Below, in pieces: positions 1 to 14,158 of a stretch of 36,890 bases of DNA. Every line of letters begins with the position of its first letter. Within the stretch, counting starts at the first letter, position 1. The position numbers were made by a program, and so were the translations under genes. Source of the stretch: Clostridia bacterium (lineage in GTDB: Bacteria > Bacillota > Clostridia > Oscillospirales > CAG-382); contig JAFXKQ010000058.1 of NCBI GenBank assembly GCA_017531625.1, forward strand, positions 1 to 36,890, given 5' to 3'. Under the pieces are notes generated by a model. It worked only from the letters and a program-made list of their open reading frames with translations. It ran no database searches and was not told the DNA's origin.

Positions 1-825
1 GTAGTCGGTGATCGGGTGAAATCCATAAGGAACTGTCGCAGAGAGGTCGTGGGTAACATCAACATTATACCACGCACCATCAATACACACCCGATTCCAT
101 GTGTGTTGAATACTGCGGTTTGTACGTGCATAGCCATCGACGACATAGCAAGGAATACCTTGGCTACGGCAGATGGCGGCGAAGAGGCAGGAGATATCGT
201 AGCACACTCCCGTTTTAGTCCGCAATGTTTTGCCTGTATCGGAATACTGATAAAGGCAATCGTAATCGTAGTCGTAGGTGATGTTTTTGGTCATCCACGT
301 ATATGCCGACATTGCCTTTTCTTCGTCGATATCGCCCGAGACGATTTCATCGTAAAAAAATGTATCCTCGCTTTTCCATAGGATGCCTGCACCATTGCCT
401 AGAGGATCCCGTACCGTTACCGAGAAGGTGATTCCCGTAATGACCAAAATGGCCGAAAACACCGATAGCAGCACGGTATTTGCGATTTTCGTTAAGGGCC
501 TATCCTTGCTGTTTGGACCTGCAATAAGATTCTTGGCAAGCAGAGCGCTTGATACAAAAACAATGTAAAATCCGAGTGGTCTTCTGCAGTAAATGGCGTA
601 AGTTATGGCAAGCAGTAAAACAAGTATATTCAGGGTGTAAGTCACTACTCGCAAGGGCTTTGACTTCATATTGAACAAGAGAAGACTTGTGCAGAGATAT
701 GACAGCACAAGAAAACATATGGGAAGGTTGCTGACGGTCAGAAAGCCCCGATATTGAAAGGTAACATAGCTATTTACAGCAATAAATACAGTAATTAACG
801 TAAGCCATATAAGCTTAATTTTCAT
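1..825 (-). CDS. Membrane-anchored transglutaminase-like domain protein (3' end runs off the window)
   Basis: Absent from the ORF track because there is no stop in the window. Hand translation from ATG at 825 (RBS GGAGGA at 832-837) gives MKIKLIWLTL..., several hydrophobic segments, then triad motifs GVCYD...HTWN...VDVT. Confidence 0.85.
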   Translation of the reverse strand, partial: MKIKLIWLTLITVFIAVNSYVTFQYRGFLTVSNLPICFLVLSYLCTSLLLFNMKSKPLRVVTYTLNILVLLLAITYAIYCRRPLGFYIVFVSSALLAKNLIAGPNSKDRPLTKIANTVLLSVFSAILVITGITFSVTVRDPLGNGAGILWKSEDTFFYDEIVSGDIDEEKAMSAYTWMTKNITYDYDYDCLYQYSDTGKTLRTKTGVCYDISCLFAAICRSQGIPCYVVDGYARTNRSIQHTWNRVCIDGAWYNVDVTHDLSATVPYGFHPITDY

Positions 826-844
826 AGAGAATCCTCCAAAAAAT

Positions 845-886
845 TTAAGCCATTTACACCAATTGCTTTAAGTGTAAATGGCTTAA
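845..886. repeat. Perfect 15-bp inverted repeat TTAAGCCATTTACAC-N12-GTGTAAATGGCTTAA
   Basis: Read directly. Each arm contains the TGGCTTAA motif also found at 954 and 973. Confidence 0.85.
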
Positions 887-1003
887 GATATTTTGGAACT
901 TTGCTCTTGCCATGCCCACTTAAAACCGTAAAAACATACATAATTACATAAATTGGCTTAAATTCGGCGTATTGGCTTAAGCTCTTTGGGGGTCTGAACG
1001 CCC

Positions 1004-1032
1004 CGAAAACCCTTTATTTATGCGGGTTTTCG
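1004..1032. repeat. 9-bp inverted repeat CGAAAACCC/GGGTTTTCG abutting the duplicated lysS tail
   Basis: Arms at 1004-1012 and 1024-1032. Confidence 0.7.
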
Positions 1033-1057
1033 TCAGTCAAGAGGTTTCATTGTGGGG
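1033..1057 (-). repeat. Duplicated lysS 3' end (att-like direct repeat)
   Basis: CCCCACAATGAAACCTCTTGACTGA matches 1755-1779 at 22/25. Both encode PTMKPLD* and the differences are synonymous. Confidence 0.92.
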
Positions 1058-1229
1058 CTCTACCGTTCCAAAGTCCGATAAGTTCGGGTAACACTCGATA
1101 AGTTTCGTTCTCAACCTCTATCATATTGCAAGTGGTCGTGATAACTTCCGATAAGTTAAGATTACGGAACATTTATTGGTTTAAACTGTGGTTTAAAATG
1201 GTTTAACCCCACTATACAAATATTGTAAT

Positions 1230-1628
1230 TTATCTGAGGACAAATTCAGAAATGGTTTTGCAAATCTCTTTGATATCAGAATCTCCCTTAAACTCAAACT
1301 TCACCTTGCCCACGCTCGAAAAATAAAGTTCCAACTCACAGTCTGCGGTGTGCTTATTCCAAAACATTTCACCTGCCCCGACGGTTTCAACGGAATATAC
1401 TTGTATTTTTGAATACGGCATAGATGTGTAGTCCTGTTTTGTACCAGTAAGTCCTTGTACATTTATAGAAATTATTCTTTTATTTGTAAATACAACCTGA
1501 TCTCTAAATCCTTTATATGTAGAAATTATTTTTTCATCCGACACAAGAATCGGACCAACCAACGGTTCTGCAACCGAATCAGAAACTTTTTTTAATTTAA
1601 AAAAAGTCGCATTATTAAAATCAATCAT
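1230..1628 (-). CDS. Bacterial PH domain protein (bPH_1-like)
   Basis: 132 aa with RD-x-VVFTNKRII...QGLTG...S-x-PY-x-KI...SVET signature. RBS GAGGAG upstream. Confidence 0.85.
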   Translation of the reverse strand: MIDFNNATFFKLKKVSDSVAEPLVGPILVSDEKIISTYKGFRDQVVFTNKRIISINVQGLTGTKQDYTSMPYSKIQVYSVETVGAGEMFWNKHTADCELELYFSSVGKVKFEFKGDSDIKEICKTISEFVLR

Positions 1629-1754
1629 TTTGCAAATCTCCTCTGCATTATAATCCTAAAATATCCTTCTTTTTGCATCACTTGGTTTAAATTTTGATTT
1701 AACCTTATTTAGCAACCCAAGATACCGTAAGATATCTTGGGTTATCGTAACTTA

Positions 1755-3263
1755 TCAGTCCAAAGGCTTCATTGTGGGGAACAAAAGGACATCTCTTATG
1801 GATGCGCTGTCGGTGAGGAGCATTACAAGACGGTCAACGCCGAAGCCAAGTCCGCCCGTAGGAGGAAGACCGTATTCAAGGGCGGTGATGTAATCATAAT
1901 CCACCTGTGCGCGGCAACCGGGTTCTTGTGCTTTTCTTTCTGCTACCTGACGCTCAAAGCGTTCCTTCTGATCGATGGGGTCATTAAGCTCGGAGAACGC
2001 GTTTCCGAATTCCGTTGCGTTGATAAAGTACTCAAATCTTTCGGTAAACGCAGGGTTTGAGGGTTTACGCTTTGCAAGCGGGCTATTCTCAACGGGGTAA
2101 TCATAAATAAACGTGGGCTGAATGAGGTTCTCCTCAACAAACGCGTCAAAGAACTCAACAAGGATTGCCCCCTTGGTCTTAACGGCGGGAAGCTCAACAT
2201 GCTTTTCCTTAGCGATGGCGATAGCCTCTTCGTCCGTAGCGATGGCGTCGAAATCAACGCCCGAATACTTCTTGACTGCCTCAACCATGGTGAGTCTTTC
2301 CCAATGTGAAAGGTCGATTTCCTTGCCTTGATAATTAATGTTAAGCGTACCGCAAACCTTCATTGCGACGGTCTTCATCATTTCCTCAACCAAGTCCATC
2401 ATGCCGTGGTAGTCGGTGTACGCCTGATAAAGCTCGATGGAAGTAAACTCCGGATTGTGCTTGGTGTCCATACCCTCGTTTCTGAAGATACGGCCAACCT
2501 CGTAGACCTTATCCATACCGCCTACAACAAGACGCTTAAGGTAAAGCTCGGTCTCGATTCTGAGCACCATATCCATATCAAGGGTGTTATGGTGAGTATA
2601 GAAAGGACGTGCAGAGGCGCCTATTTCAAAGGGAGTAAGAATAGGCGTATCAACCTCCAAAAATCCCTTGGAGTCAAGGAAAGAACGAAGCTCACGCAAA
2701 ATAAGAGAACGCTTTACAAAGGTATCCTTAACCTCGGGGTTAACGATAAGGTCAACGTATCTTTGGCGGTAACGCATGTCTGTATTGGTCAGTCCGTGAT
2801 ACTTTTCGGGAAGCGGGAGCAAAGCCTTTGAGAGGAGCATAATTTCCTTAGCGTGTACGGAAATTTCACCTCTGCGTGTGCGAAACACAAATCCCTTTAC
2901 GCCGACAATGTCACCGATGTCCCAGGTCTTAAACTCGGCAAAGGCTTCCTCACCTATCTCGTCACGCTTAACGTAGATCTGGATTCTTCCGCTGCCGTCA
3001 GCGATGTCAATAAAATTAGCCTTACCCATGTCACGCCAGGAAAGGATTCTGCCTGCGATGGAAACATCCTTTTCCTCAAACTCTTCAAACTTCTCCTTTA
3101 TGGGGAGAACCTCAGTAGTTCTCTCGTACTTGGTAATTTCATAAGGGTCTGCACCAACGCTCTTGAGCTTGTCAAGCTTCTGACGGCGAAGAAGCATCTG
3201 CTCGCTTAAACCTTGACCTTCTTCAACCATTTCTTCAACTGTATTATTAACGTTGTTGTCCAT
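1755..3263 (-). CDS. lysS: Lysine--tRNA ligase (class II)
   Basis: RYRQRYVDL, YEVGRIFRNEG, HNPEFT, YGLPPTGGLGFGVDRL, IRDVLLFP. Confidence 0.99.
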   Translation of the reverse strand: MDNNVNNTVEEMVEEGQGLSEQMLLRRQKLDKLKSVGADPYEITKYERTTEVLPIKEKFEEFEEKDVSIAGRILSWRDMGKANFIDIADGSGRIQIYVKRDEIGEEAFAEFKTWDIGDIVGVKGFVFRTRRGEISVHAKEIMLLSKALLPLPEKYHGLTNTDMRYRQRYVDLIVNPEVKDTFVKRSLILRELRSFLDSKGFLEVDTPILTPFEIGASARPFYTHHNTLDMDMVLRIETELYLKRLVVGGMDKVYEVGRIFRNEGMDTKHNPEFTSIELYQAYTDYHGMMDLVEEMMKTVAMKVCGTLNINYQGKEIDLSHWERLTMVEAVKKYSGVDFDAIATDEEAIAIAKEKHVELPAVKTKGAILVEFFDAFVEENLIQPTFIYDYPVENSPLAKRKPSNPAFTERFEYFINATEFGNAFSELNDPIDQKERFERQVAERKAQEPGCRAQVDYDYITALEYGLPPTGGLGFGVDRLVMLLTDSASIRDVLLFPTMKPLD

Positions 3264-3293
3264 AAAAACTGTTTCTCCTCTGTTTTGTTACAA

Positions 3294-3761
3294 TTACTTT
3301 GAAATACCTACAACTTCAACTGTCAGATTTCCGGTAGGAATCTCAACTACCTTGCTTTCGCCGATACGCATTCCGATGAGCGCCTTACCGATGGGGGACT
3401 CGTCAGAAATCTTGAGCTTAAGCGGGTCAGCCTCAGTAGAACCGACAATGGTATACTCGCATTCTCTGCCGTTAGACTTAACCTGAACTTTACAACCGAT
3501 GCTTACAGCGTCAGTCTTTATGTTCTTGTCGTCAAGAATAACTGCGTGCTTTATATTTTCTTCAAGCTGAGCGATACGGGTTTCAACCTCAGCCTGCTCT
3601 TTTTTCGCCTCATCATATTCGCTGTTCTCGGAGAGGTCACCGTACTCTCTCGCCTTCTTGATAGCAAGCTTAATTTCGGTACGTTTCACGGTTTTGAGGA
3701 ATTCAAGCTCCTCCTGCATCTTGTTAAAACCTTCCTGAGATACTACTACCTGCTTTGCCAT
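3294..3761 (-). CDS. greA: Transcription elongation factor GreA
   Basis: GDLSENSEYDEAK and ISDESPIGKAL. Usual greA-lysS order. Confidence 0.98.
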   Translation of the reverse strand: MAKQVVVSQEGFNKMQEELEFLKTVKRTEIKLAIKKAREYGDLSENSEYDEAKKEQAEVETRIAQLEENIKHAVILDDKNIKTDAVSIGCKVQVKSNGRECEYTIVGSTEADPLKLKISDESPIGKALIGMRIGESKVVEIPTGNLTVEVVGISK

Positions 3762-3876
3762 AACTGTGTCCTCCGTAAATTTATTGTTAATGATAAATCT
3801 ATTCTTAAGTTTTTATAAAAAGACGGTCAAACCGTGCCGACTTCAAAACCGAAAACCTCTAAGCTTAAAACTCCTG

Positions 3877-5214
3877 TTATTCACCGACTTCAAGCGCTTC
3901 AATAGCGGCTTGAAGCTGAACATCCTCTTCCATGGGAACCTTAAATCGGTCCACGCCTTCCTCAAACGCCTTTTCTATGTCGGGAACAATGCCATCACCG
4001 TTATAACCGTCGCTGAATGGAGGGTAATAATAACTGCTGGTAAGCTTGATTACGCCACCGTCGCTCAAGTTATAAAAGGACTGCATGCTTCCCTTGCCGA
4101 AAGTGGTTTCTCCCACTAAAACAGCCTTTTTGTAATCCCTCAACGCCGCCGCAAACAACTCGCCTGCCGAAGCGGTGGAGCCGTTTACGATAACAGCCAT
4201 GGGGGCATCAAGAATGAACTCTGCATCAGACTTAATCCCGCCTTCTTTGCCGTCCTTGTCCACCCAACGAATAATCGGACCTTCGGGAAGCAACATGTCA
4301 AGCACACTGCAAACAGAATTAAGATAACCGCCCGAATTGTTACGCACGTCAAAGATGTACTTTTCAGCACCGTCAGTCTTCGAAGCTTCTACGGCAGCCT
4401 TGAACTCTTCGGGAGTGTTGCTTGCAAGTCCTGTAATCTTAAAGTAAGCCACTTTACCGTCAAGCATCTCATACTCAACGGATTTGATTTCGTAATCGCC
4501 TCGGATTATTTCCAAAACAAGCTCTTCACTACCGCGTAAAACCGTAATCTTAACAGCGGTACCGCTTTCTCCGCTTATGGCTGCAGTCGCATTTTCTGCG
4601 CCTAACTCCTCTATGGAAGTTCCGTCAACTGCGGTAATGTAGTCACCGACCAGCACCCCTGCCTTCTCTGCGGGGGAATCCTTGAGCACCTGGTAAACGT
4701 AAATGGTGTCCTCAACCGAGTTAATGGAAACACGTACACCTATGCCTTTTTTGGAACCGTAGTTTCCGTCAATAAACTGCTTGCTCTCTTCAGCCGACAT
4801 GTACTGCATGTATCTGTCGCCCGAAGCGAAGGTGTAACCTTGAATTGCACCGTACAGCAGGTTTTCGTCATTGATTTCTCCTACGTAGTGCTCTCTCACC
4901 ACCTCGTCGATTTCAAAGAGAATCCCAAACCGTTCTTCCACGTCTTGGTACTTCTTTTCCGCCGCAACCAAGGCGTTGTTTACTGCTAGTCTTTGCGAAT
5001 CTGCGTAACGGTTGGTAAGGTAAATTCCGCAAACAAGGACGCTCACCACCGCAGTAAAAATGCAACTCCAAATGCAAGCGGTAAGGCTTACACTTCTGCC
5101 ATTTTTCGCCGAGCCGGAATCGGGCTCATGCTGACCGTCCTTGGTCTGTTCTTCGTTGTCTGCGTTTTCATCGGCGGCGGAATTCTCCGTCACCTCAAGC
5201 TTGTTTTCATCCAT
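3877..5214 (-). CDS. S41 family C-terminal processing protease (TM, PDZ, S41)
   Basis: GIGV PDZ motif, DVRNNSGG, TASAGE, GETTFGKGSMQ, GIVPD. Confidence 0.93.
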   Translation of the reverse strand: MDENKLEVTENSAADENADNEEQTKDGQHEPDSGSAKNGRSVSLTACIWSCIFTAVVSVLVCGIYLTNRYADSQRLAVNNALVAAEKKYQDVEERFGILFEIDEVVREHYVGEINDENLLYGAIQGYTFASGDRYMQYMSAEESKQFIDGNYGSKKGIGVRVSINSVEDTIYVYQVLKDSPAEKAGVLVGDYITAVDGTSIEELGAENATAAISGESGTAVKITVLRGSEELVLEIIRGDYEIKSVEYEMLDGKVAYFKITGLASNTPEEFKAAVEASKTDGAEKYIFDVRNNSGGYLNSVCSVLDMLLPEGPIIRWVDKDGKEGGIKSDAEFILDAPMAVIVNGSTASAGELFAAALRDYKKAVLVGETTFGKGSMQSFYNLSDGGVIKLTSSYYYPPFSDGYNGDGIVPDIEKAFEEGVDRFKVPMEEDVQLQAAIEALEVGE

Positions 5215-6624: not shown

Positions 6625-7518
6625 TTAAACATTCAAATGTTTCTTGACGCAAATGGAACTTGCAACCACGCCGGAAAAGATTCCGATAGCCAGGAACGCA
6701 AGTGCGATAATAACAAGGTAGTCATTAACAAAGGAACCTAAGATAGCCGTACCGCCGTAGGTCCCCACCATGTCGACGGTGATTTCGTAAAGGCAGAATT
6801 GAATCCCCAAGGCAATAACAGCAGAAACGATGCCGATGATAACGCCCTCAACAATAAAAGGCGCAATAACAAAGGCACTCGTAGCGCCAATGTAACGCAT
6901 TATGGCGATCTCCTGTCTTCTTGAGTAGACCGTAAGCTTAACCGTGTTCATAATAACAAGTATAGCCACAACAAACAGGATTACCATAATCCAAATCCCA
7001 ATAACACGGAAAAGGGATTTAAGACGGTTTGCACCCTCGTAAACGCTGATTTGGCTTTTAACCTCATCAATGCCTGTTATGGCGTTCAAATCTCTGATAA
7101 TGGAGTGAACCTCGTCAAAATCCGAAAACTCCACTTTAAAGGTGTGTGGCACGGGATTGGTCTCAGAATCGTAACGGTTAAGAATCTCCTTAATGGAAGG
7201 AGCTCTCTCCTTAAGCGCTTCGAGACCCTCATCGCTTGTGACCTGAGTATAAGCGCTGACGTGTTCAATCTTGCTTATTTGTTCTTCGATTCCCCTTATG
7301 TCCTCTTCCCCTGCGCCGTTCATAACGTAGGCGTTGATAACGTAAAGGTCGTCTATGCCTTCAAGAAAGCGGTCAATGTTATCAATCAGAAGGAAAAAGG
7401 TGCCGGGAAGAATCATGCAAAAGATAAGCACCGCAATGGAAGCGGTGGTCATGGCACCGTTTCGGAAAAAGCTTATAAACCCTTGGGAAATGAGGTGAGG
7501 AATGCTTCTTATTTTCAT
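6625..7518 (-). CDS. ftsX: Cell division permease FtsX
   Basis: NTVKLTVYSRRQEIAIMRYIGAT...PFIVEG. Overlaps ftsE by 4 bp. Confidence 0.95.
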   Translation of the reverse strand: MKIRSIPHLISQGFISFFRNGAMTTASIAVLIFCMILPGTFFLLIDNIDRFLEGIDDLYVINAYVMNGAGEEDIRGIEEQISKIEHVSAYTQVTSDEGLEALKERAPSIKEILNRYDSETNPVPHTFKVEFSDFDEVHSIIRDLNAITGIDEVKSQISVYEGANRLKSLFRVIGIWIMVILFVVAILVIMNTVKLTVYSRRQEIAIMRYIGATSAFVIAPFIVEGVIIGIVSAVIALGIQFCLYEITVDMVGTYGGTAILGSFVNDYLVIIALAFLAIGIFSGVVASSICVKKHLNV

Positions 7519-8279
7519 TCTGCAACACCTCCGTTATTTTCAGTTTTTTCTGAGTCTGTGTCCCTTGAATGCTGAACGTAGGGAGCTTCGTACTGTTCAA
7601 CGTGCTCCACATTTATTCCCACTCTGTCGGAAACGATCTTACCGTTTTCGAGGGTGATAACACGCTTTTTGTAGTAGTTTACCAAATCCCAGTCGTGCGT
7701 AACCACGATAACGGTCTTACCCAGCTTGTTTATTCTTACCAAAAGATTGAGAATGTCACGGCTCATTTCGGGGTCCACGTTACCGGTAGGCTCGTCCGCA
7801 ATGATGATCTGCGGGTTATTAGCCAGGGCACGGGCAAAAGCAACCCTCTGCTGTTCACCGCCCGAGAGCTCGTCGGGGAAGCGGTCAGCCTTGTCGGTAA
7901 GCTCCGCAAGGTTCAAAAAATAAGGGACTCTCTTCCTGATAACCGAAACCTTTTCTCCAACGACACGCATGGCAAACGCCACGTTCTCGTAGACGGTCTT
8001 GTTCTTAAACAATCTGAAATCCTGAAAAACAACGCCCATTGTACGCCTGAGATAAGGAATCTTCCTTGCAGGCATACGGTCGAGTCTGAAATTGTTGACG
8101 GTGAGACGTCCGCTTGTAATGCGTTCTTCACGGAGCAAAAGCTTTGTAAGAGTGGTCTTACCTGCGCCCGAGCGTCCGACTATAAAAACGAACTCGCCGT
8201 CTTCGATGCGAAGGCTCACTCGGTCAAGAGCCTCCGTGCCGTTTGGGTAGGCCATTGAAACGTCCTGGAATTCAATCAT
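7515..8279 (-). CDS. ftsE: Cell division ATP-binding protein FtsE
   Basis: [37 protein letters not shown]. Confidence 0.97.
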
Positions 8280-8493
8280 CTTTCAAATTACCTCAAAAAA
8301 ACAGCCTGTAAATAAAACCAAGATTGCATCAAAGCTCCCCAAAAGAACTTTCCGGGAAGCTCGGAATCAACAAGTGATTGCACGTAATTAAACGTAACAA
8401 ATGTCTGCTTAAATCAAATCTGTAACAACTCAGTAAGGTGTGCGTCTGAGAAAAACTCACCCGGCCGACGCAACCAACCGCAGCGTTACCTCA

Positions 8494-9582
8494 TCAGCCC
8501 GTAAACGCAAGAGAGGGCTTAGCCTGAACGTACTTTTTAACCATGAGTGCAACCTTAAAGGTGATGGCATGCTCAAACTCTCTTAAATCAAGACCTGTGA
8601 GCTTCTTGATTTTTTCAAGACGGTAAACCAAGGTGTTTCTGTGAACGAAAAGCTTACGGCTGGTTTCGGACACGTTGAGGTTGTTCTCAAAGAACGCCTG
8701 AATCGTCACAAGAGTTTCCCTGTCAAGACTGTCAAGAGAGCCTCTCTTGAACACCTCCTGCAAGAACATCTCGCAAAGTGTGGACGGAAGCTGATAAATC
8801 AATCTGCCGATGCCGAGATTTTCGTAATTGATGGTGCTCTTTTCCGGTTCAAAAATGCTTCCTACGCTGATGGCAACCTGAGAATCCTTGTAAGAGCGTG
8901 CAAGGTCCTTTATGTTAGAAACGGTAGTGCCGATGCCGACAACCACTTTAAGCAGGAATTCGCTGGAAGCGGTGTCAACAATGTCCTTTGCAATGGACTC
9001 AATGTTTTTAAGTTCGGAAGCGTTCTTCATCTCTTTGACGAGAACAACATCATTTTCACCGACGCTGATAACGTAATCACGGTTCTTGTCCGGGAACATG
9101 TTCTGCACCACATCAAAGGGGATAATGTCACCCTTGTTGATGAAACGGATAAGGAACACAACACGATTCACTTCGTTGTCAAAATGAAGCTCCTTGGACT
9201 TAATGTAAATGTCGCCGGGAAGGATGTTGTCAAGAATGATGTTCTTTATAAAATTGGTCTTATCGTACTTTTCATCATAAAGGGTTTTTATGTTTGAGAG
9301 GGAAACAGAAAGAAGCTGTGACGTGCTCTTTGCAAGCTCGTCCTCGCCTTCAACAAAAACAATGTATTCAATGTGAGCATGAGAACCAATGGGCTTGTAG
9401 GTGTAGCCGTTAAAAGCAACGCTGTCAAAGGAATAGGAAATCTCCTCAACCGCGTCACGTCTAACCTCGCCTATCCTGGTAAGTTGCGAACAGGCAATAA
9501 CAGTACCACGGTCGTCAATAACGCCAATCATGCGGTTAACGGCGTCTTTCATCTGATAAATCAAACCTTGAAATAACTTCAT
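8494..9582 (-). CDS. CdaR/PucR family transcriptional regulator
   Basis: N-terminal sensor (IGVIDDRGTVIA), GGDEF-like middle, C-terminal HTH LFVHRNTLVYRLEKI. Confidence 0.92.
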   Translation of the reverse strand: MKLFQGLIYQMKDAVNRMIGVIDDRGTVIACSQLTRIGEVRRDAVEEISYSFDSVAFNGYTYKPIGSHAHIEYIVFVEGEDELAKSTSQLLSVSLSNIKTLYDEKYDKTNFIKNIILDNILPGDIYIKSKELHFDNEVNRVVFLIRFINKGDIIPFDVVQNMFPDKNRDYVISVGENDVVLVKEMKNASELKNIESIAKDIVDTASSEFLLKVVVGIGTTVSNIKDLARSYKDSQVAISVGSIFEPEKSTINYENLGIGRLIYQLPSTLCEMFLQEVFKRGSLDSLDRETLVTIQAFFENNLNVSETSRKLFVHRNTLVYRLEKIKKLTGLDLREFEHAITFKVALMVKKYVQAKPSLAFTG

Positions 9583-9764
9583 ACCTCAAATTCCGTCCTT
9601 GCATTCGTCACACAAATACGGATTCTCTATCCAAAGCATTGCAACCCAAACCAAACTTCAAATCACAAAGGTTCCGGTGCAGAATCGGCAAACTGCTGCG
9701 AATACCGAATCCCCAACAATCGGGAAACAACTAAGGGAAGTTCACCCCTCGTCACCCGATTAGT

Positions 9765-9793
9765 ATTATAAACGATTGCTCCCGAATTTTCAA
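9765..9793 (-). promoter_or_regulatory. Sigma-A promoter for the CdaR-family gene
   Basis: TTGAAA-N17-TATAAT. Confidence 0.75.
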
Positions 9794-9942
9794 GTACTTT
9801 TGCGTAATTCTAACAAAAAAATTCTCAAAAATTTGTTGCTTTTAACTCTTTTTTACCACTAAAACCCATAAAGAATCAGTTAGAGGCGCAAAAATTGTCG
9901 AAAACTTCCTCTGTGAACGGATTATTTTTTGTACAAAACGCC

Positions 9943-9971
9943 TTGACTTTTAGATAGGATTTTGATAGAAT
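9943..9971 (+). promoter_or_regulatory. Sigma-A promoter for the DUF1292 gene (possibly also 6S RNA)
   Basis: TTGACT-N17-TAGAAT with extended -10 TG. Confidence 0.7.
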
Positions 9972-10055
9972 ACCTTTACAGTCGGGGGCATCCCCCAACC
10001 AACATATTTTTCTAAAAGGAGGGCGCGGCGGAGCAGTCCGTTTGCGTATCATACG

Positions 10056-10382
10056 ATGACCGATAATCACGACAACATTAACGAGCTTCCGGAAGAAGTT
10101 GAAACTTGCGTTCTTGTGGACGAAGACGGAAACGAAAGCGTTTTTGAATTGATTGGCGAGCTTGAAATCGACGGCGCAGAGTATCTTGCGTTTATGCCCA
10201 TTGAAAGTGACGATTGCGAGTACGTTATTCTTAAGAAAGAGCGTGATGAGAACGGCGAGGAAACTCTTGTAACCATCGACGACGATGACGAGTTTGAGCG
10301 TGTTGCCGAGGAGTTTGAGGACCGCCTCATGGATGAGCTTGACCTTGACGAGCTTGACGGCGACAACGAGGACGACGACTAA
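10056..10382 (+). CDS. DUF1292 family acidic protein
   Basis: LVDEDGNE..FE...EIDG.EY...L.TIDDDDEFERV pattern. Confidence 0.88.
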   Translation: MTDNHDNINELPEEVETCVLVDEDGNESVFELIGELEIDGAEYLAFMPIESDDCEYVILKKERDENGEETLVTIDDDDEFERVAEEFEDRLMDELDLDELDGDNEDDD

Positions 10383-10437
10383 AACGGGGCCTATCTTCCC
10401 CCTTTTGTCTTGAATTAACCGTTACTGCGAAAAAAGT

Positions 10438-10642
10438 ACTCCTGCTTGATTCGTGTTGTTCCCGTGTAAAAACCCACATTAACGAAGAGGAGCCTGGGCT
10501 TCTTATTTCGGGAATGCAGACCTCCCATACCTGCGCTGCTTTAGTCACCGCGGAGTATGGACGTTGGGAGCGCAAAGAATAAGAGAGGGCACCTACCTGC
10601 ACAGAGCAGGGTTTCGTTCACGGGCCACGGTCCGGTGGGAGA
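10438..10642 (+). ncRNA. ssrS: 6S RNA (ends approximate)
   Basis: AGAGGGCACCTACCTGCACAGAGCAGGGTT resembles the conserved Firmicute 6S 3' bubble. The ends pair (CTCC/GGAG, CCCGTG/CACGGG, AACGAA/TTCGTT). About 200 nt, followed by a terminator. Confidence 0.8.
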
Positions 10643-10664
10643 GCTTAGTTTTCAAAACGTATTT

Positions 10665-10701
10665 AAAAGAGCTTTGCGAAAACGTTCCGCAAAGCTCTTT
10701 T
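10665..10701. terminator. Bidirectional intrinsic terminator
   Basis: AAAAGAGCTTTGCG-N9-CGCAAAGCTCTTTT between convergent transcripts. Confidence 0.85.
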
Positions 10702-10710
10702 CTGTTTCTG

Positions 10711-11547
10711 TTAAGAGTTCAAATCTAAATTTTCGATACGAATTGAAGCTATTATGTCCTCAATCCACCCAGAGCTTTCTGCGATAGCTTGGTTATGGCA
10801 TCTCGCTACCACCTCAAACAGAAATCCCTCGTACTCAAAGCTCATCAAAAACACTTTGTACGGGTTTTCAGCCCTCGTCTTTGTTTTTGTGTAATACTTT
10901 CCGTATTCAAACTCGCCTTCGCCCGTTATGTACTCCTCACTGCTTTGTGCAATTACGCTGTCGGAGAGCTTTTTCCCTTCTGTTATGGTTACACTTATGC
11001 TGGGATAACCCTCTGTCTTGTTGTAAAGCAGATAGGAAAACTTTGTCTCCTTCGGCCAATAGCAAGTAAATGTATCAGGATAGGCAAAATCTAAGGAAAC
11101 AATCAAGGGCAATTCTTCTCTTATGTCAAAGGTTTTATAAAGCACGTCCGTTTCTCTTATGGGCTTATCTCTTGCCTCAACCTTAGCCTTTTCGTTAATC
11201 AGAAAGCTCTTTATTTCGTTATAAAAAGCCTCTGTATACAAATCTCCGCCTTTTTCGTGCGGAATTTTGTAACTGCCAAGCTCATAGTACCAAAGGGGTG
11301 GTAAACAGCCCGAATAGCCGTATAACAAGCCCTTTTTATCCGTGTCGTCTCCGTAGCATTCGCCGTAATCGTCAAATCCCTCGGCGTAGTAATAATCCAC
11401 TCTATAAGAGGTGTCTTCATAAGAGGTTTCTTCGTTTTCGCTTACGGCATCGGAAGGCACAAGACTCTCGTTGTCCGTTTTGCCTTCACAAGCACACAAG
11501 CCGAAAACAAAGACAAAAGCTAACAATAAACAAAACAATTTTTTCAC
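10711..11547 (-). CDS. Hypothetical lipoprotein
   Basis: GTG start with RBS AGGAGG, lipobox-like GLCAC, no recognised domain. Confidence 0.8.
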   Translation of the reverse strand: MKKLFCLLLAFVFVFGLCACEGKTDNESLVPSDAVSENEETSYEDTSYRVDYYYAEGFDDYGECYGDDTDKKGLLYGYSGCLPPLWYYELGSYKIPHEKGGDLYTEAFYNEIKSFLINEKAKVEARDKPIRETDVLYKTFDIREELPLIVSLDFAYPDTFTCYWPKETKFSYLLYNKTEGYPSISVTITEGKKLSDSVIAQSSEEYITGEGEFEYGKYYTKTKTRAENPYKVFLMSFEYEGFLFEVVARCHNQAIAESSGWIEDIIASIRIENLDLNS

Positions 11548-11675: not shown

Positions 11676-12788
11676 TTATTGGTTTTTATTTATGTCAATC
11701 ACCACGTATTCGCTCTTTTCGGCGGTTCTCACCGAAAAGCCCCAGCCCGAGATGCCCGATGTAACAACAGCATTAAAATCACCGTCTTTTTTCAAGCCGT
11801 AGTTCATCTCGTTTATGCCGAAAAGCTCCGAAAACTGTCCCAAGGGCCAAATCTGACCTGCGTGGGTGTGTCCCGAAAGCTGTAAATCCACTCCCAGCTC
11901 TGCCGCCGTTTTCAAATCCTTCGGTTGATGATCGAGAAGCAAAACAAACCTTTCCCTGTTAACCTCCGACAAAAGCGTCGAAAGCTCTTTTCTTTCAGAG
12001 CCGAAATGCCCCATGGAGGCGTCATTACGCCCCACAACGCAAAACTCGTTTCCAATCTCCACGCACTCATCTTCAAGAACGGTTATCCCGTTCTTTTCAA
12101 ATTCAGCCTCAATTTCTTCTCCGCCAAAGCCCCTTCCGTTTCTGTAATGACCTCGATCGTGGTTTCCGTAAACAAAGTATGTGCCGTACTTAGTTTCAAC
12201 GCCGCCGAGAACTTCGGCCGCTTTGACCATCTCCGCAAGGCTTGTCCCTTCGTCAAACAAATCTCCTACCAAAACGAAAACGTCGGGATTCTCCGCTTGA
12301 ATCTTTCCGCAGTACTCCTTAAGCTCCGACGAATCAATGGAATTACCCAGATGAAGGTCGGCAATCATCGCCACCCTCAGCTCTACTTCCTTTTCACTCC
12401 GTAGCTCGTAACGTGTTGCGGTGACATGGTTAATGTTCCAAAATCCGTAGAACAGAACACAGGCAGTAACTACAAGCGTAAGCAATCCGCTGGCATAAAG
12501 CTTCAACCGCTTAAAATCCTTCTTAAAATGCTTGACTGCCCTTTCTGCAACCAGATAAACAAAATCCGTAACTGCACCGCAAAGAATCAGCATCAGCACC
12601 GATGACATTCCCACTCCAAAAACGTCGGTAAAAGCCGAGACAAGCAACAAAACCGCCGCCACCGCGGAACAAGAGTAGAGCACCGATTTTTTCTCAACAC
12701 CGAAAAAGCTTAAGATCCGCTTCGCAAGGAAAAAAAGATAAAGCCCGCCAAGCACACCGACCGCCAGGAATAAAGCCACAAAAATCAT
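11676..12788 (-). CDS. Membrane-anchored metallophosphoesterase (YkuE-like)
   Basis: N-terminal TMs and motifs DLHLG, GDLFD, GNHD, DHQP, SGHTHAGQ. Confidence 0.92.
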   Translation of the reverse strand: MIFVALFLAVGVLGGLYLFFLAKRILSFFGVEKKSVLYSCSAVAAVLLLVSAFTDVFGVGMSSVLMLILCGAVTDFVYLVAERAVKHFKKDFKRLKLYASGLLTLVVTACVLFYGFWNINHVTATRYELRSEKEVELRVAMIADLHLGNSIDSSELKEYCGKIQAENPDVFVLVGDLFDEGTSLAEMVKAAEVLGGVETKYGTYFVYGNHDRGHYRNGRGFGGEEIEAEFEKNGITVLEDECVEIGNEFCVVGRNDASMGHFGSERKELSTLLSEVNRERFVLLLDHQPKDLKTAAELGVDLQLSGHTHAGQIWPLGQFSELFGINEMNYGLKKDGDFNAVVTSGISGWGFSVRTAEKSEYVVIDINKNQ

Positions 12789-14158
12789 AACGCCTCCTGT
12801 TCTAACCTCAGCTTTCTAAGGTCCACGGCGAAAACCGCCGTCACAACCACAGCAGAAACAACCCAAATCACCGGTTCCGCAATGCAAATCCCGATGTAAC
12901 CGAGATAAGGCGCAAACAAAGTCGCGGCAACAAATTTAAGAACCAATTCAATAGCTCCCGAAACGATGGGAACAGCCTTTTTACCAAGGCCCTGCAAAGC
13001 GCTTCTGAACACGAAAAGCAGATTCAGAACAAAGAAGAACGGAAGGTTTATGCGCATGTACATAACAGCCTCCGAAATGATTTGCTCATCCGTCGAAGCG
13101 GTAAGCATTTCCGCAAGCTCCGCACCGAAAAGGTAAATCACCGCCACGCCCAACGCCGACCATAAAGAACCCGCAATCAGAGTGCTCTTAATGCCTGAAG
13201 TAATGCGTTCATAACGCTTTGCACCGTAGTTCTGACCCACAAAAGTGGCAGCCGCAGTACCAAGGGTGCTGAGCGGAAGCATAAACAGCCCGTCCAAACG
13301 TCTTGCGGCACCCGTAGCTGTAATGGTGGCTTTGTCGAAACCGTTAATCGCTCTTTGAAGCGCAAACGAACCGAGAGAAACAAGTGAGCTGATCAAGCCC
13401 ATGGACAAGCCCATCAAAGCAAGCTCGGAGAAAAGCGGCGCCTCTAAACGAAAATCTCCCTTTTTGACATGAAGCTCAGGCCGCTTTTTCCAAATGTAAG
13501 AAAAAACAAGAACCACCGAAACCGCCTGAGCGCAAACCGTAGCGAGGGCGATTCCGCCCACGTTCATTCCCAGCCCCTTTACAAAAAACAAATCAAGACC
13601 CACGTTAAGCAACGAAGTAAAAATCAAGAAAACAAGAGGTGTCCTGCTGTCGCCTACCGCACGCAGAACGCTCGCCCCCATGTTGTAGAGAATTGTGGTT
13701 ATTATTCCCCCAATTATGATGGAAATGTACGAATAAGCCTCACCGTAAAGCGTCTCAGGCACATCTATAAGACTCATCAAGGAATCCAACAACAAAAGAC
13801 CGAGGGCAGTAAAAACCGCCGCTGTTGCAAGATTTATCAACAGCATGTGGGCAACAGCTTTACGCATGCGCTCCATGTTCTTCGCACCGAAAAGACGGGT
13901 AACCACGATGGCGCTGCCGTTGTTCATTCCGTTTGCCATTCCGATTATTACGCCGTAAATGCTGCCCGTTGCGGAAATTGCCGCAAGAGCGTCTTCCCCG
14001 AGGGTTTCTCCGGAAATCCGCATGTCTGCAAGATTGTAAAATTGCTGAAAGAGGTTGCCAAGCAAAATCGGCAACGCAAACAGTATGATAACCTTAAAAG
14101 GATTTCCAACTGTCATGTCGCCCCGCTTTGAAAGGGGCATTTTTTTCACTTCGGTCAT
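12785..14158 (-). CDS. MATE family efflux transporter
   Basis: FALPILLGNLFQQFYNLAD, LRAVGDSRTPL, GQNYGAK. Confidence 0.95.
   Translation of the reverse strand: MTEVKKMPLSKRGDMTVGNPFKVIILFALPILLGNLFQQFYNLADMRISGETLGEDALAAISATGSIYGVIIGMANGMNNGSAIVVTRLFGAKNMERMRKAVAHMLLINLATAAVFTALGLLLLDSLMSLIDVPETLYGEAYSYISIIIGGIITTILYNMGASVLRAVGDSRTPLVFLIFTSLLNVGLDLFFVKGLGMNVGGIALATVCAQAVSVVLVFSYIWKKRPELHVKKGDFRLEAPLFSELALMGLSMGLISSLVSLGSFALQRAINGFDKATITATGAARRLDGLFMLPLSTLGTAAATFVGQNYGAKRYERITSGIKSTLIAGSLWSALGVAVIYLFGAELAEMLTASTDEQIISEAVMYMRINLPFFFVLNLLFVFRSALQGLGKKAVPIVSGAIELVLKFVAATLFAPYLGYIGICIAEPVIWVVSAVVVTAVFAVDLRKLRLEQEAL

Follow-up and report, generated by a model that had tools for sequence, protein, structure and literature searches.

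Probable tandem integrative units at the lysS 3′ end of an uncultured animal-gut Clostridia bacterium

The 3′ end of lysS, the gene for a class II lysyl-tRNA synthetase (LysRS), carries in the Clostridia bacterium G000 what is, judged from its sequence, a tandem accretion of two units, because a 722-nt mini-element (E1) that separates lysS from a second unit (E2) is bounded by two copies of the same core. The window analyzed here, 36,890 nt in length, is the entire contig C10 of G000, a 1.41-Mb metagenome-assembled genome (MAG) of 179 contigs that is 77% complete. Positions 1-1057 of this window probably represent the lysS-proximal end of E2, either an integrative element or its decayed, cis-mobilizable remnant. 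A second element stacked behind the first had been proposed in a previous sequence-only reading of this stretch, whose motifs, hairpin, displaced lysS tail and accessory gene were all found in place (Table 1). Support for the second element comes from other genomes (loci L058 and L061, and genomes G535, G211, G425 and G036) and not from G000 itself.

A duplicated lysS end and the two adjoining units

The last 25 nt of lysS are present twice, as a direct repeat of 88% identity with copies 722 nt apart (1033-1057 and 1755-1779). Both copies share the exact 12-nt core TTCATTGTGGGG, located at 1046-1057 in the displaced copy, and, read from the - strand, both encode PTMKPLD* with synonymous differences. 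The frame and end of the target gene are restored by the element, and PTMKPLD* is likewise encoded in L058, G004, G009 and at both cores of contig C6 of G036. Upstream of lysS follow, in order, greA, genes for an S41 and an M23 peptidase, and ftsX/ftsE. The E2/E1 junction is real, as contigs of two public runs (X1 and X2) cover 493-1078 with 0 differences, and the E1/lysS side is confirmed by public-run contigs covering 1056-1596 and 1595-1780. No contig joints bypassing E1 were listed in four runs, which is uninformative since contigs lose rare variants.

E1 contains both cores, arm repeats on both sides (at -85/-73 and +120/+132/+142 relative to the core) and a bPH_1 gene as its sole gene, and encodes neither a recombinase nor a regulator. 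It thus retains attL and attR in the absence of integration and transfer genes, the state that defines a cis-mobilizable element (CIME), and both copies of its boundary repeat are present. For E2, only the lysS-side end and the lysS-side copy of the repeat are visible in the contig, and a far-end copy belonging to this arm type is found in L061. L058, whose lysS/E2 junction is otherwise homologous, lacks E1. Neither repeats nor cores surround the bPH homologues of G014 and G180, which are therefore uninformative on the mobility of E1.

Several further short repeats were noted around E1 and its homologues. The bPH_1 gene on contig C48 of G014, which is 79% identical to that of E1 and has no lysS core near it, lies a few hundred bases from four copies of AGCTAAAT within ~90 nt (L029, positions 6982-7075 of the oriented view). 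The distal arm of E1 contains three copies of CGATAAGTT (1077-1157), an inverted copy of which (1749-1756) overlaps the lysS stop codon, and a similar motif, CCACTTATCG, is found twice in the G036 element Y, also within its distal arm. Such motifs may be excisionase or host-factor sites.

E2 would consist, outward from lysS, of a replacement tail (PLD*), a terminator hairpin, the repeats TGGCTTAA-GGCGTAT-TGGCTTAA, a terminator-like stem and a cargo gene encoding a membrane protein with a C-terminal transglutaminase core, of which 275 codons are present and the 3′ end is lost at the contig end. Of the four TGGCTTAA copies, those at 954, 973 and 879 are in + orientation and that at 845 is inverted (- strand). 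The pair at 954 and 973 sits 92 and 73 nt before the core and encloses the degenerate unit GGCGTAT (966-972), which is kept in L058 and L061. Those at 845 and 879 each fall in one arm of an inverted repeat (845-859/872-886); as RNA, 838-893 forms a terminator-like stem-loop with a U run (-29.3 kcal/mol, z -6.55), which immediately precedes the ribosome-binding site GGAGGA of the cargo gene (832-837, - strand). The repeat is conserved in L058, where a single compensatory change turns CCATTTACAC/GTGTAAATGG into CCAATTACAC/GTGTAATTGG. Throughout the window, TGGYTTAA occurs 12 times compared with 3.45 expected (a count reached in 0 of 100 shuffles), with 8 of these copies falling within 845-1690. 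Across the 1.41-Mb genome, TGGCTTAA occurs 33 times, and the only cluster of at least three copies within 150 bp is that at 845-980. The repeats at 954-980 are proposed to be arm-type sites for a heterobivalent tyrosine integrase.

The displaced lysS stop is followed by a hairpin, and the RNA of 990-1060 (- strand) folds at -21.4 kcal/mol (z -2.99). Near-identical GAAAACCC..GGGTTTTC hairpins occur at unrelated intergenic spots of G013 and G180, and the hairpin was rejected as a family marker or recombination site, being a generic terminator motif. No Rfam family above threshold was found in 1-2000 and no tRNA in 1-4000, and a scan of 780-1800 for sigma-70 and terminator consensus sequences yielded nothing useful.

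Table 1. Coordinates of lysS and of the features assigned to E1 and E2 in the window
Feature	Position	Strand	Basis or remark
E2 cargo gene, membrane protein with C-terminal Transglut_core	1-825	-	PF01841, 3e-19
E2 inverted repeat, arms each holding TGGCTTAA	838-893	-	perfect 15-bp arms 845-859 / 872-886
E2 proximal arm repeats: TGGCTTAA (954), degenerate GGCGTAT (966), TGGCTTAA (973)	954-980	+	motif scan
Hairpin 3′ of displaced lysS stop, CGAAAACCC (1004-1012) / GGGTTTTCG (1024-1032)	1004-1032	-	terminator type
Displaced lysS 3′ end (PTMKPLD*, stop 1033-1035), E2/E1 junction	1033-1057	-	direct repeat
Mini-element E1	1058-1754	-	697 bp between cores; with one 25-nt repeat copy, a 722-nt unit
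E1 GATAAGTT, three copies	1077, 1097, 1150		
E1 TGGTTTAA, three copies	1177, 1189, 1199		
E1 bPH_1 gene	1230-1628		
E1 TGGTTTAA and one-mismatch TGATTTAA	1683 and 1695		
E1 hairpin	1714-1743		
lysS, class II lysyl-tRNA synthetase, target gene	1755-3263	-	PF00152, 1.1e-87
Live lysS tail copy, last 25 nt of lysS	1755-1779	-	direct repeat

Horizontal spread and recurrence at other lysS loci

When the cargo protein was used as a query against metagenome contigs, one locus was identified, L058, in which the E2 module adjoins lysS directly, with no 722-bp E1 in between. The module of L058 comprises the transglutaminase-like gene, the inverted repeat, TTGGCTTAA / GGCGTAT / TTGGCGTAA, a hairpin and the PTMKPLD* tail. 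Window positions 826-1057 are 82% identical to it (191 of 232 columns), whereas the hosts are far apart at the amino acid level (LysS 57%, GreA 43%, S41 peptidase 32%, M23 peptidase 29%, FtsX 29%, FtsE 55%); nucleotide identity is 59.5% for lysS and 63.5% for the cargo gene, and the cargo copy beside lysS in L058 is 55% identical and frameshifted. As the non-coding module is better kept than the most conserved neighbouring genes, it appears to have moved horizontally, and the comparison indicates that the E2 module spread between distant hosts. Seven same-genus genomes could be read downstream of lysS, and all 7 have other content there instead of the transglutaminase-like gene, in agreement with this patchy distribution. 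The gene is thus not the conserved neighbour of lysS, which had been one part of the condition under which the sequence-only reading was to be abandoned. Homologues of the cargo protein (35-41% identity) are located elsewhere in G012, G023, G011, G024 and G003, never beside lysS, and two of them directly follow a tRNA gene.

The same data bear on a reading of 1-1057 as native sequence, according to which the original lysS end and its terminator were displaced by E1 alone, the cargo gene is ancestral and the repeats are regulatory or due to chance. The generic nature of the terminator hairpin, the cargo gene beside lysS also in L058, and the lack of a far end or integrase among the contigs of G000 are all compatible with such a history. 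The module identity of 82%, with LysS at 57% and FtsX at 29%, largely refutes it. The absence of the gene from lysS in the same genus, its homologues at other loci, including those right after a tRNA gene, and the recurrence of the repeat type at lysS in other families and at the displaced core of L061 also speak against it. We regard the native reading as quite improbable.

A cargo homologue is also part of a 1.2-kb block in L047 (G023:C11, 915-2154), L048 (G011:C12) and L049 (G003:C10), which is 74-82% identical across three genomes of two genera with differing flanks and has its own upstream repeats (two copies of TTGCCCTT). This suggests a mobile single-gene module with another target. In viral contigs, neither a match to the repeat pattern nor a relative of the cargo protein was found.

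A scan of species-representative genomes with the composite repeat identified L061, in an Acutalibacteraceae MAG. This locus contains two copies of TTAAGCCA (492-499 and 512-519), followed after 122/142 nt by CCCCACGATGAA, a short tail, a terminator and other genes, and the element body is cut by the contig start. L061 is the far end of a TGGCTTAA-type element, at a displaced lysS core and tail, and its distal spacing (+122/+142) matches the distal arm of E1 (+120, +132, +142). The further attachment core anticipated by the sequence-only reading is therefore present in L061, together with a TGGCTTAA pair, and was not found in G000. E1, element Y of G036 and the TGGCTTAA type all show one repeat that flanks the core at ~70-145 nt on either side without a change of orientation; for the TGGCTTAA type, this geometry is pooled across genomes (-92/-73 in the window, -90/-71 in L058, +122/+142 in L061).

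Within 401 genomes of the order, the pattern TTGGCKTAA-N9-12-TTGGCKTAA gave 5 matches and its control 0. Four of the 5 (G000, G535, G211 and G425) are located 73-107 nt before a lysS core and the fifth inside a coding region. G535, G211 and G425 have TGG(C/T)(G/T)TAA repeats in an E2-like geometry at lysS, and the G211 element encodes ParA, ParB and SpoVG-like proteins. A family-level scan matched 2 of 164 genomes (G000 and one match in G134); its backwards-read control gave 5 matches, so that one or two chance matches are to be expected in the 164-genome scan. A TGGCTTAA pair on contig C30, inside a coding region, was dismissed as a chance occurrence.

The arm of G211 also affects a claim of the sequence-only reading. 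E1 and E2 had been assigned different arm specificities, yet the single arm beside lysS in G211 contains TGGCTTAA, TGGTTTAA, TGGCTTAA and TGGATTAA in tandem. The one-base difference between TGGCTTAA and TGGTTTAA thus probably falls within one recognition family, and since the fourth base varies inside this arm, E1 and E2 are probably recognized by one integrase or by closely similar ones. The equal 60-bp offset between motif and lysS tail, which had been proposed for both units, is exact in E2 (973 to 1033); in E1, the motif at 1695 is TGATTTAA, with one mismatch, and the exact TGGTTTAA is at 1683. Nor can the newest unit be taken to lie nearest to lysS: integration at either junction yields an identical structure, and the order of arrival is unreadable from the sequence because insertion of E1 inside or of E2 behind gives the same product.

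The downstream regions of lysS were read in detail in 19 relatives. The plan of a lysS tail, a hairpin and then two to four direct 8-10-nt repeats recurs in relatives with other repeat sequences (TGGCGTAGT in G007 and G009, TTGTTGTCAA in G004 and G036:C8, TGTCGTAAA in G038). G026 contains two cores with different repeats, TTTGGTAAA at the first and TGTCGTAAAT behind the second; its second unit is 95% identical to the proximal arm of Y over 149 nt and has no far arm. Contig C6 of G036 carries an array of the order remnant-core-Y-core-Z. The body of element Y is flanked on either side by TGTCGTAAA pairs (-87/-76 and +116/+128); Y encodes an integrase with PF02920 and PF00589, an ImmA-like protein and a Tn916-type excisionase (Xis). 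A second integrase with PF02920 is encoded by Z, whose arms carry TTGTTGTCA. The lysS-adjacent element on contig C8 of G036 encodes a type IV coupling protein and looks conjugative; a link between the C6 array and lysS on C8 could not be shown. G038 contains a 1405-bp DUF4932 cassette with the repeat of Y, TGTCGTAAA, on both sides and no recombinase. The lysS core is thus occupied by a putative family of autonomous elements, single-gene mini-units and remnants, in stacked arrangements.

With these relatives at hand, an alternative can be assessed in which the element is real, TGGCTTAA serves as an operator or iteron site for control of the cargo gene or of replication, and the stem 838-893 is an attenuator. 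The copies at 845 and 879 indeed form a strong terminator-like stem before the ribosome-binding site, with a compensatory change in L058, those at 954 and 973 lie where the promoter of the cargo gene is expected, and in L058 a gene for an HTH_3 regulator adjoins the cargo gene. However, the repeat pair recurs across the core in L061, away from any cargo promoter, the repeats of G535, G211 and G425 hold their distance to the lysS core and not to a gene start, E1 has the PH-domain gene and no regulator, and the geometry equals that of units encoding arm-binding integrases. We consider the operator alternative unlikely and continue to favour arm-type sites of an integrative element.

In L019 (G037), L023 (G028), L026 (G012) and L028 (G014), lysS runs through PTMKP into a C-terminal tRNA-binding domain (PF01588). 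The G038 cassette (L013, 7917-9800) is inserted at the PTMK core and splits lysS from this domain, which persists as a detached 211-aa open reading frame (ORF) starting inside the cassette end. Of relevance to annotation, the LysRS of some relatives thus has a C-terminal tRNA-binding domain that is severed by such insertions. A search for a displaced tRNA-binding domain as a marker of the far end gave only MetRS-like and PheT-like copies.

Additional observations were made in the loci compared. In L058, a 383-aa tyrosine integrase is encoded 2.2 kb past the transglutaminase-like gene, and its gene (12400-13760) lies between the two copies of a perfect 21-bp inverted repeat, GCGTAGAACTATTACTTCTAC (7077-7097 and 8500-8520 in the oriented view); it may be a separate insertion, perhaps an invertible or self-contained unit within the lysS island. 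A type VII secretion cluster with an EssC-like ATPase and YukD is located a few kb past lysS in L016 (G007, 6690-11512) and L058 (14411-19550, with an added WXG100 gene) and may represent the conserved chromosomal flank beyond the islands; tblastn of the EssC-like protein of L058 against G000 yielded only a weak FtsK-domain match (30% over 240 residues). In L068 (G180:C49, 2172-2290), three tandem copies of AATGGAGTA follow the gene of a 402-aa integrase and precede the start of a ychF-like GTPase gene, apparently another arm-repeat element, aimed at the 5′ end of a gene. L046 (G013:C10, ~9560-9870) contains a partial, 5′-half tRNA(UGG)-like copy ~200 nt before the full gene, with a GAAAACCC..GGGTTTTC-type terminator hairpin between the two, and the partial copy may be the scar of an insertion at the tRNA gene.

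The far end of E2 and the proposed mode of movement

The contig breaks off inside the cargo gene, no sequence is assembled to the left of position 1, and the far end of E2 is not within it. No contig of G000 overlaps the first 15-55 bases of the window, and a 449-nt contig found in runs X1 and X2 extends 350 nt beyond position 1. Joining contigs C54 or C70, which carry YpsA-like genes as found beside the cargo gene of L058, was also considered and rejected, as the neighbours on C70 differ and C54 is unjoinable.

A number of observations weigh against the interpretation of E2 as an integrative element. The assembled 77% of G000 contains no third lysS core and no far end of E2; a loose search gave 8 core matches, the 2 known ones and 6 others, none of these at the 3′ end of a lysS-like frame (two were inspected closely: that on C33 is a tRNA, and that on C12 lies within coaX). 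No second TGGCTTAA cluster was found across G000. PF02920 is likewise missing from its contigs, and PF00589 was detected only in a Xer-like gene and a 223-aa fragment, so that the tyrosine integrase which the sequence-only reading proposed to look for is present in or beside comparable units (two with PF02920 in G036, and that of L058) and has no cognate counterpart in G000. This absence is weak evidence because the genome is 77% complete. Furthermore, L058 has a frameshifted cargo gene and yielded neither a distal TGGCTTAA pair nor a second core, so the E2 copy there looks fixed and decayed; E2 of G000 may be a fixed remnant as well. The hairpin 1004-1032, as a generic terminator, provides no homology support between elements, the presence of two of the four TGGCTTAA copies may be explained by the terminator-like stem whose arms they form, and binding of an integrase to TGGCTTAA is suggested by geometry alone.

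If E2 is an integrative element or its remnant, a Tn916/lambda-type tyrosine integrase acting in trans would recognize the TGG(C/T)TTAA repeats through its N-terminal domain. The integrase would synapse the cores, and E1, E2 or both could then excise, given a matching integrase and Xis in trans. Parts of this scheme are already in evidence at the loci described: the core is duplicated, the end of the gene is restored, both arms have repeats at constant distances, and units have spread horizontally and are stacked. Each unit probably has its own promoter.

Known systems and the lysS 3′ end as an integration site

Stacking at the 3′ end of a gene is a known process, found here in little-studied gut bacteria. 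A review that cites Pavlovic 2004 and Bellanger 2011 describes the integrative and conjugative elements (ICEs) ICESt1 and ICESt3, which accrete in tandem with CIMEs at the 3′ end of fda in Streptococcus thermophilus: elements integrate at the 3′ terminus of a housekeeping gene and decay to a cis-mobilizable state, and newcomers are added where the attachment site has been regenerated (PMC5704250). The units in the window and at the related loci likewise pile up behind a housekeeping gene, with an att core that includes the gene end at every junction; E1, like CIMEs, keeps both att sites without integrase or transfer genes, and other units are decayed. Unlike ICESt1 and ICESt3, they occur in another host group and at another target gene, one end only is available for E2, and they are known from sequence. 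CIMEs are several kb long; the single-gene E1 (722 bp) and G038 cassette (1405 bp) are far smaller.

A similar target is used by streptococcal ICEs such as ICE_SsuGZ1_lysS, which encode site-specific tyrosine integrases and insert at the lysS 3′ end with 13-17 bp direct repeats (PMC4701971). In both cases the last lysS codons are targeted and the gene end is restored, here with a 12-nt core in a 25-nt repeat, and a conjugative-type element with a type IV coupling protein is located at lysS in G036. In contrast to the streptococcal elements, those described here belong to another bacterial class, and the two are likened by target and architecture, not by integrase or att sequence.

Tn916 and phage lambda provide a model for the arms. 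The integrases (Int) of both are heterobivalent, and the N-terminal domain of Tn916 Int binds direct repeats in the arms of the transposon. By analogy, the core flanked on both sides, ~70-145 nt away, by short direct repeats of one orientation resembles a lambda/Tn916 attP, and PF02920 integrases and Tn916-type Xis are encoded in sister elements. Tn916 has a low target specificity, whereas the elements described here are specific for lysS.

The sequence-only reading had likened the locus to an integron array, and single-gene units of one orientation at one site, each with a hairpin beside a repeated core, do recall one. A true integron-like system would have a dedicated platform integrase beside lysS that captures cassettes one at a time, each without a promoter and with a folded hairpin site. 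Neither intI nor a PF00589 match was found on the window contig, where the lysS, greA and peptidase genes follow instead, nor is there an attI, and the contiguous array of G026 has no platform integrase within 12 kb. The hairpins 1004-1032 and 1714-1743 are simple perfect stems of the terminator type that are unlike each other, in contrast to the folded sites of attC type. The units instead have direct arm repeats on both sides, as in a lambda/Tn916-type attP, as well as regulatory signals of their own, comparable units encode their own integrase and Xis, and the recombinase is of another type. An integron-like system is therefore highly improbable here, and tandem accretion of integrative units remains the preferred interpretation.

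A broader proposal, which we put forward tentatively and with some doubt, is that lysS might serve as the docking site of an open cassette economy, in which single-gene units lacking a recombinase but equipped with a two-armed attP would be moved in trans and become stacked, both among themselves and with ICEs. It is based on the TGTCGTAAA arms of the G038 cassette, which are those of the integrase- and Xis-encoding element Y, and on TGGTTTAA of E1, which co-occurs with TGGCTTAA in the arm of the ParAB-bearing G211 element. Such units would move like miniature inverted-repeat transposable elements (MITEs) that use a transposase made elsewhere. If true, this would constitute integron-like trading of single genes via heterobivalent integrases without a fixed platform, and E2 would be one more such unit.

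The lysS 3′ end, an ICE target in streptococci, is thus also a busy integration site in uncultured Clostridia of the animal gut, where full elements, single-gene mini-units and decayed remnants accumulate. In the genomes compared, the elements are often located at contig breaks, as in this window and in G001, G008, G180, G425, G535 and G211. For fragmented MAGs, the islands can be marked by a core at the PTMK codons with two to four 8-9-nt repeats 70-110 nt before it that return 115-145 nt after it. Matched autonomous and mini-elements with a common arm code provide natural material for the study of trans-mobilization and of changes in arm recognition, and the single-gene mini-units whose arm codes recur in autonomous elements deserve attention above all.

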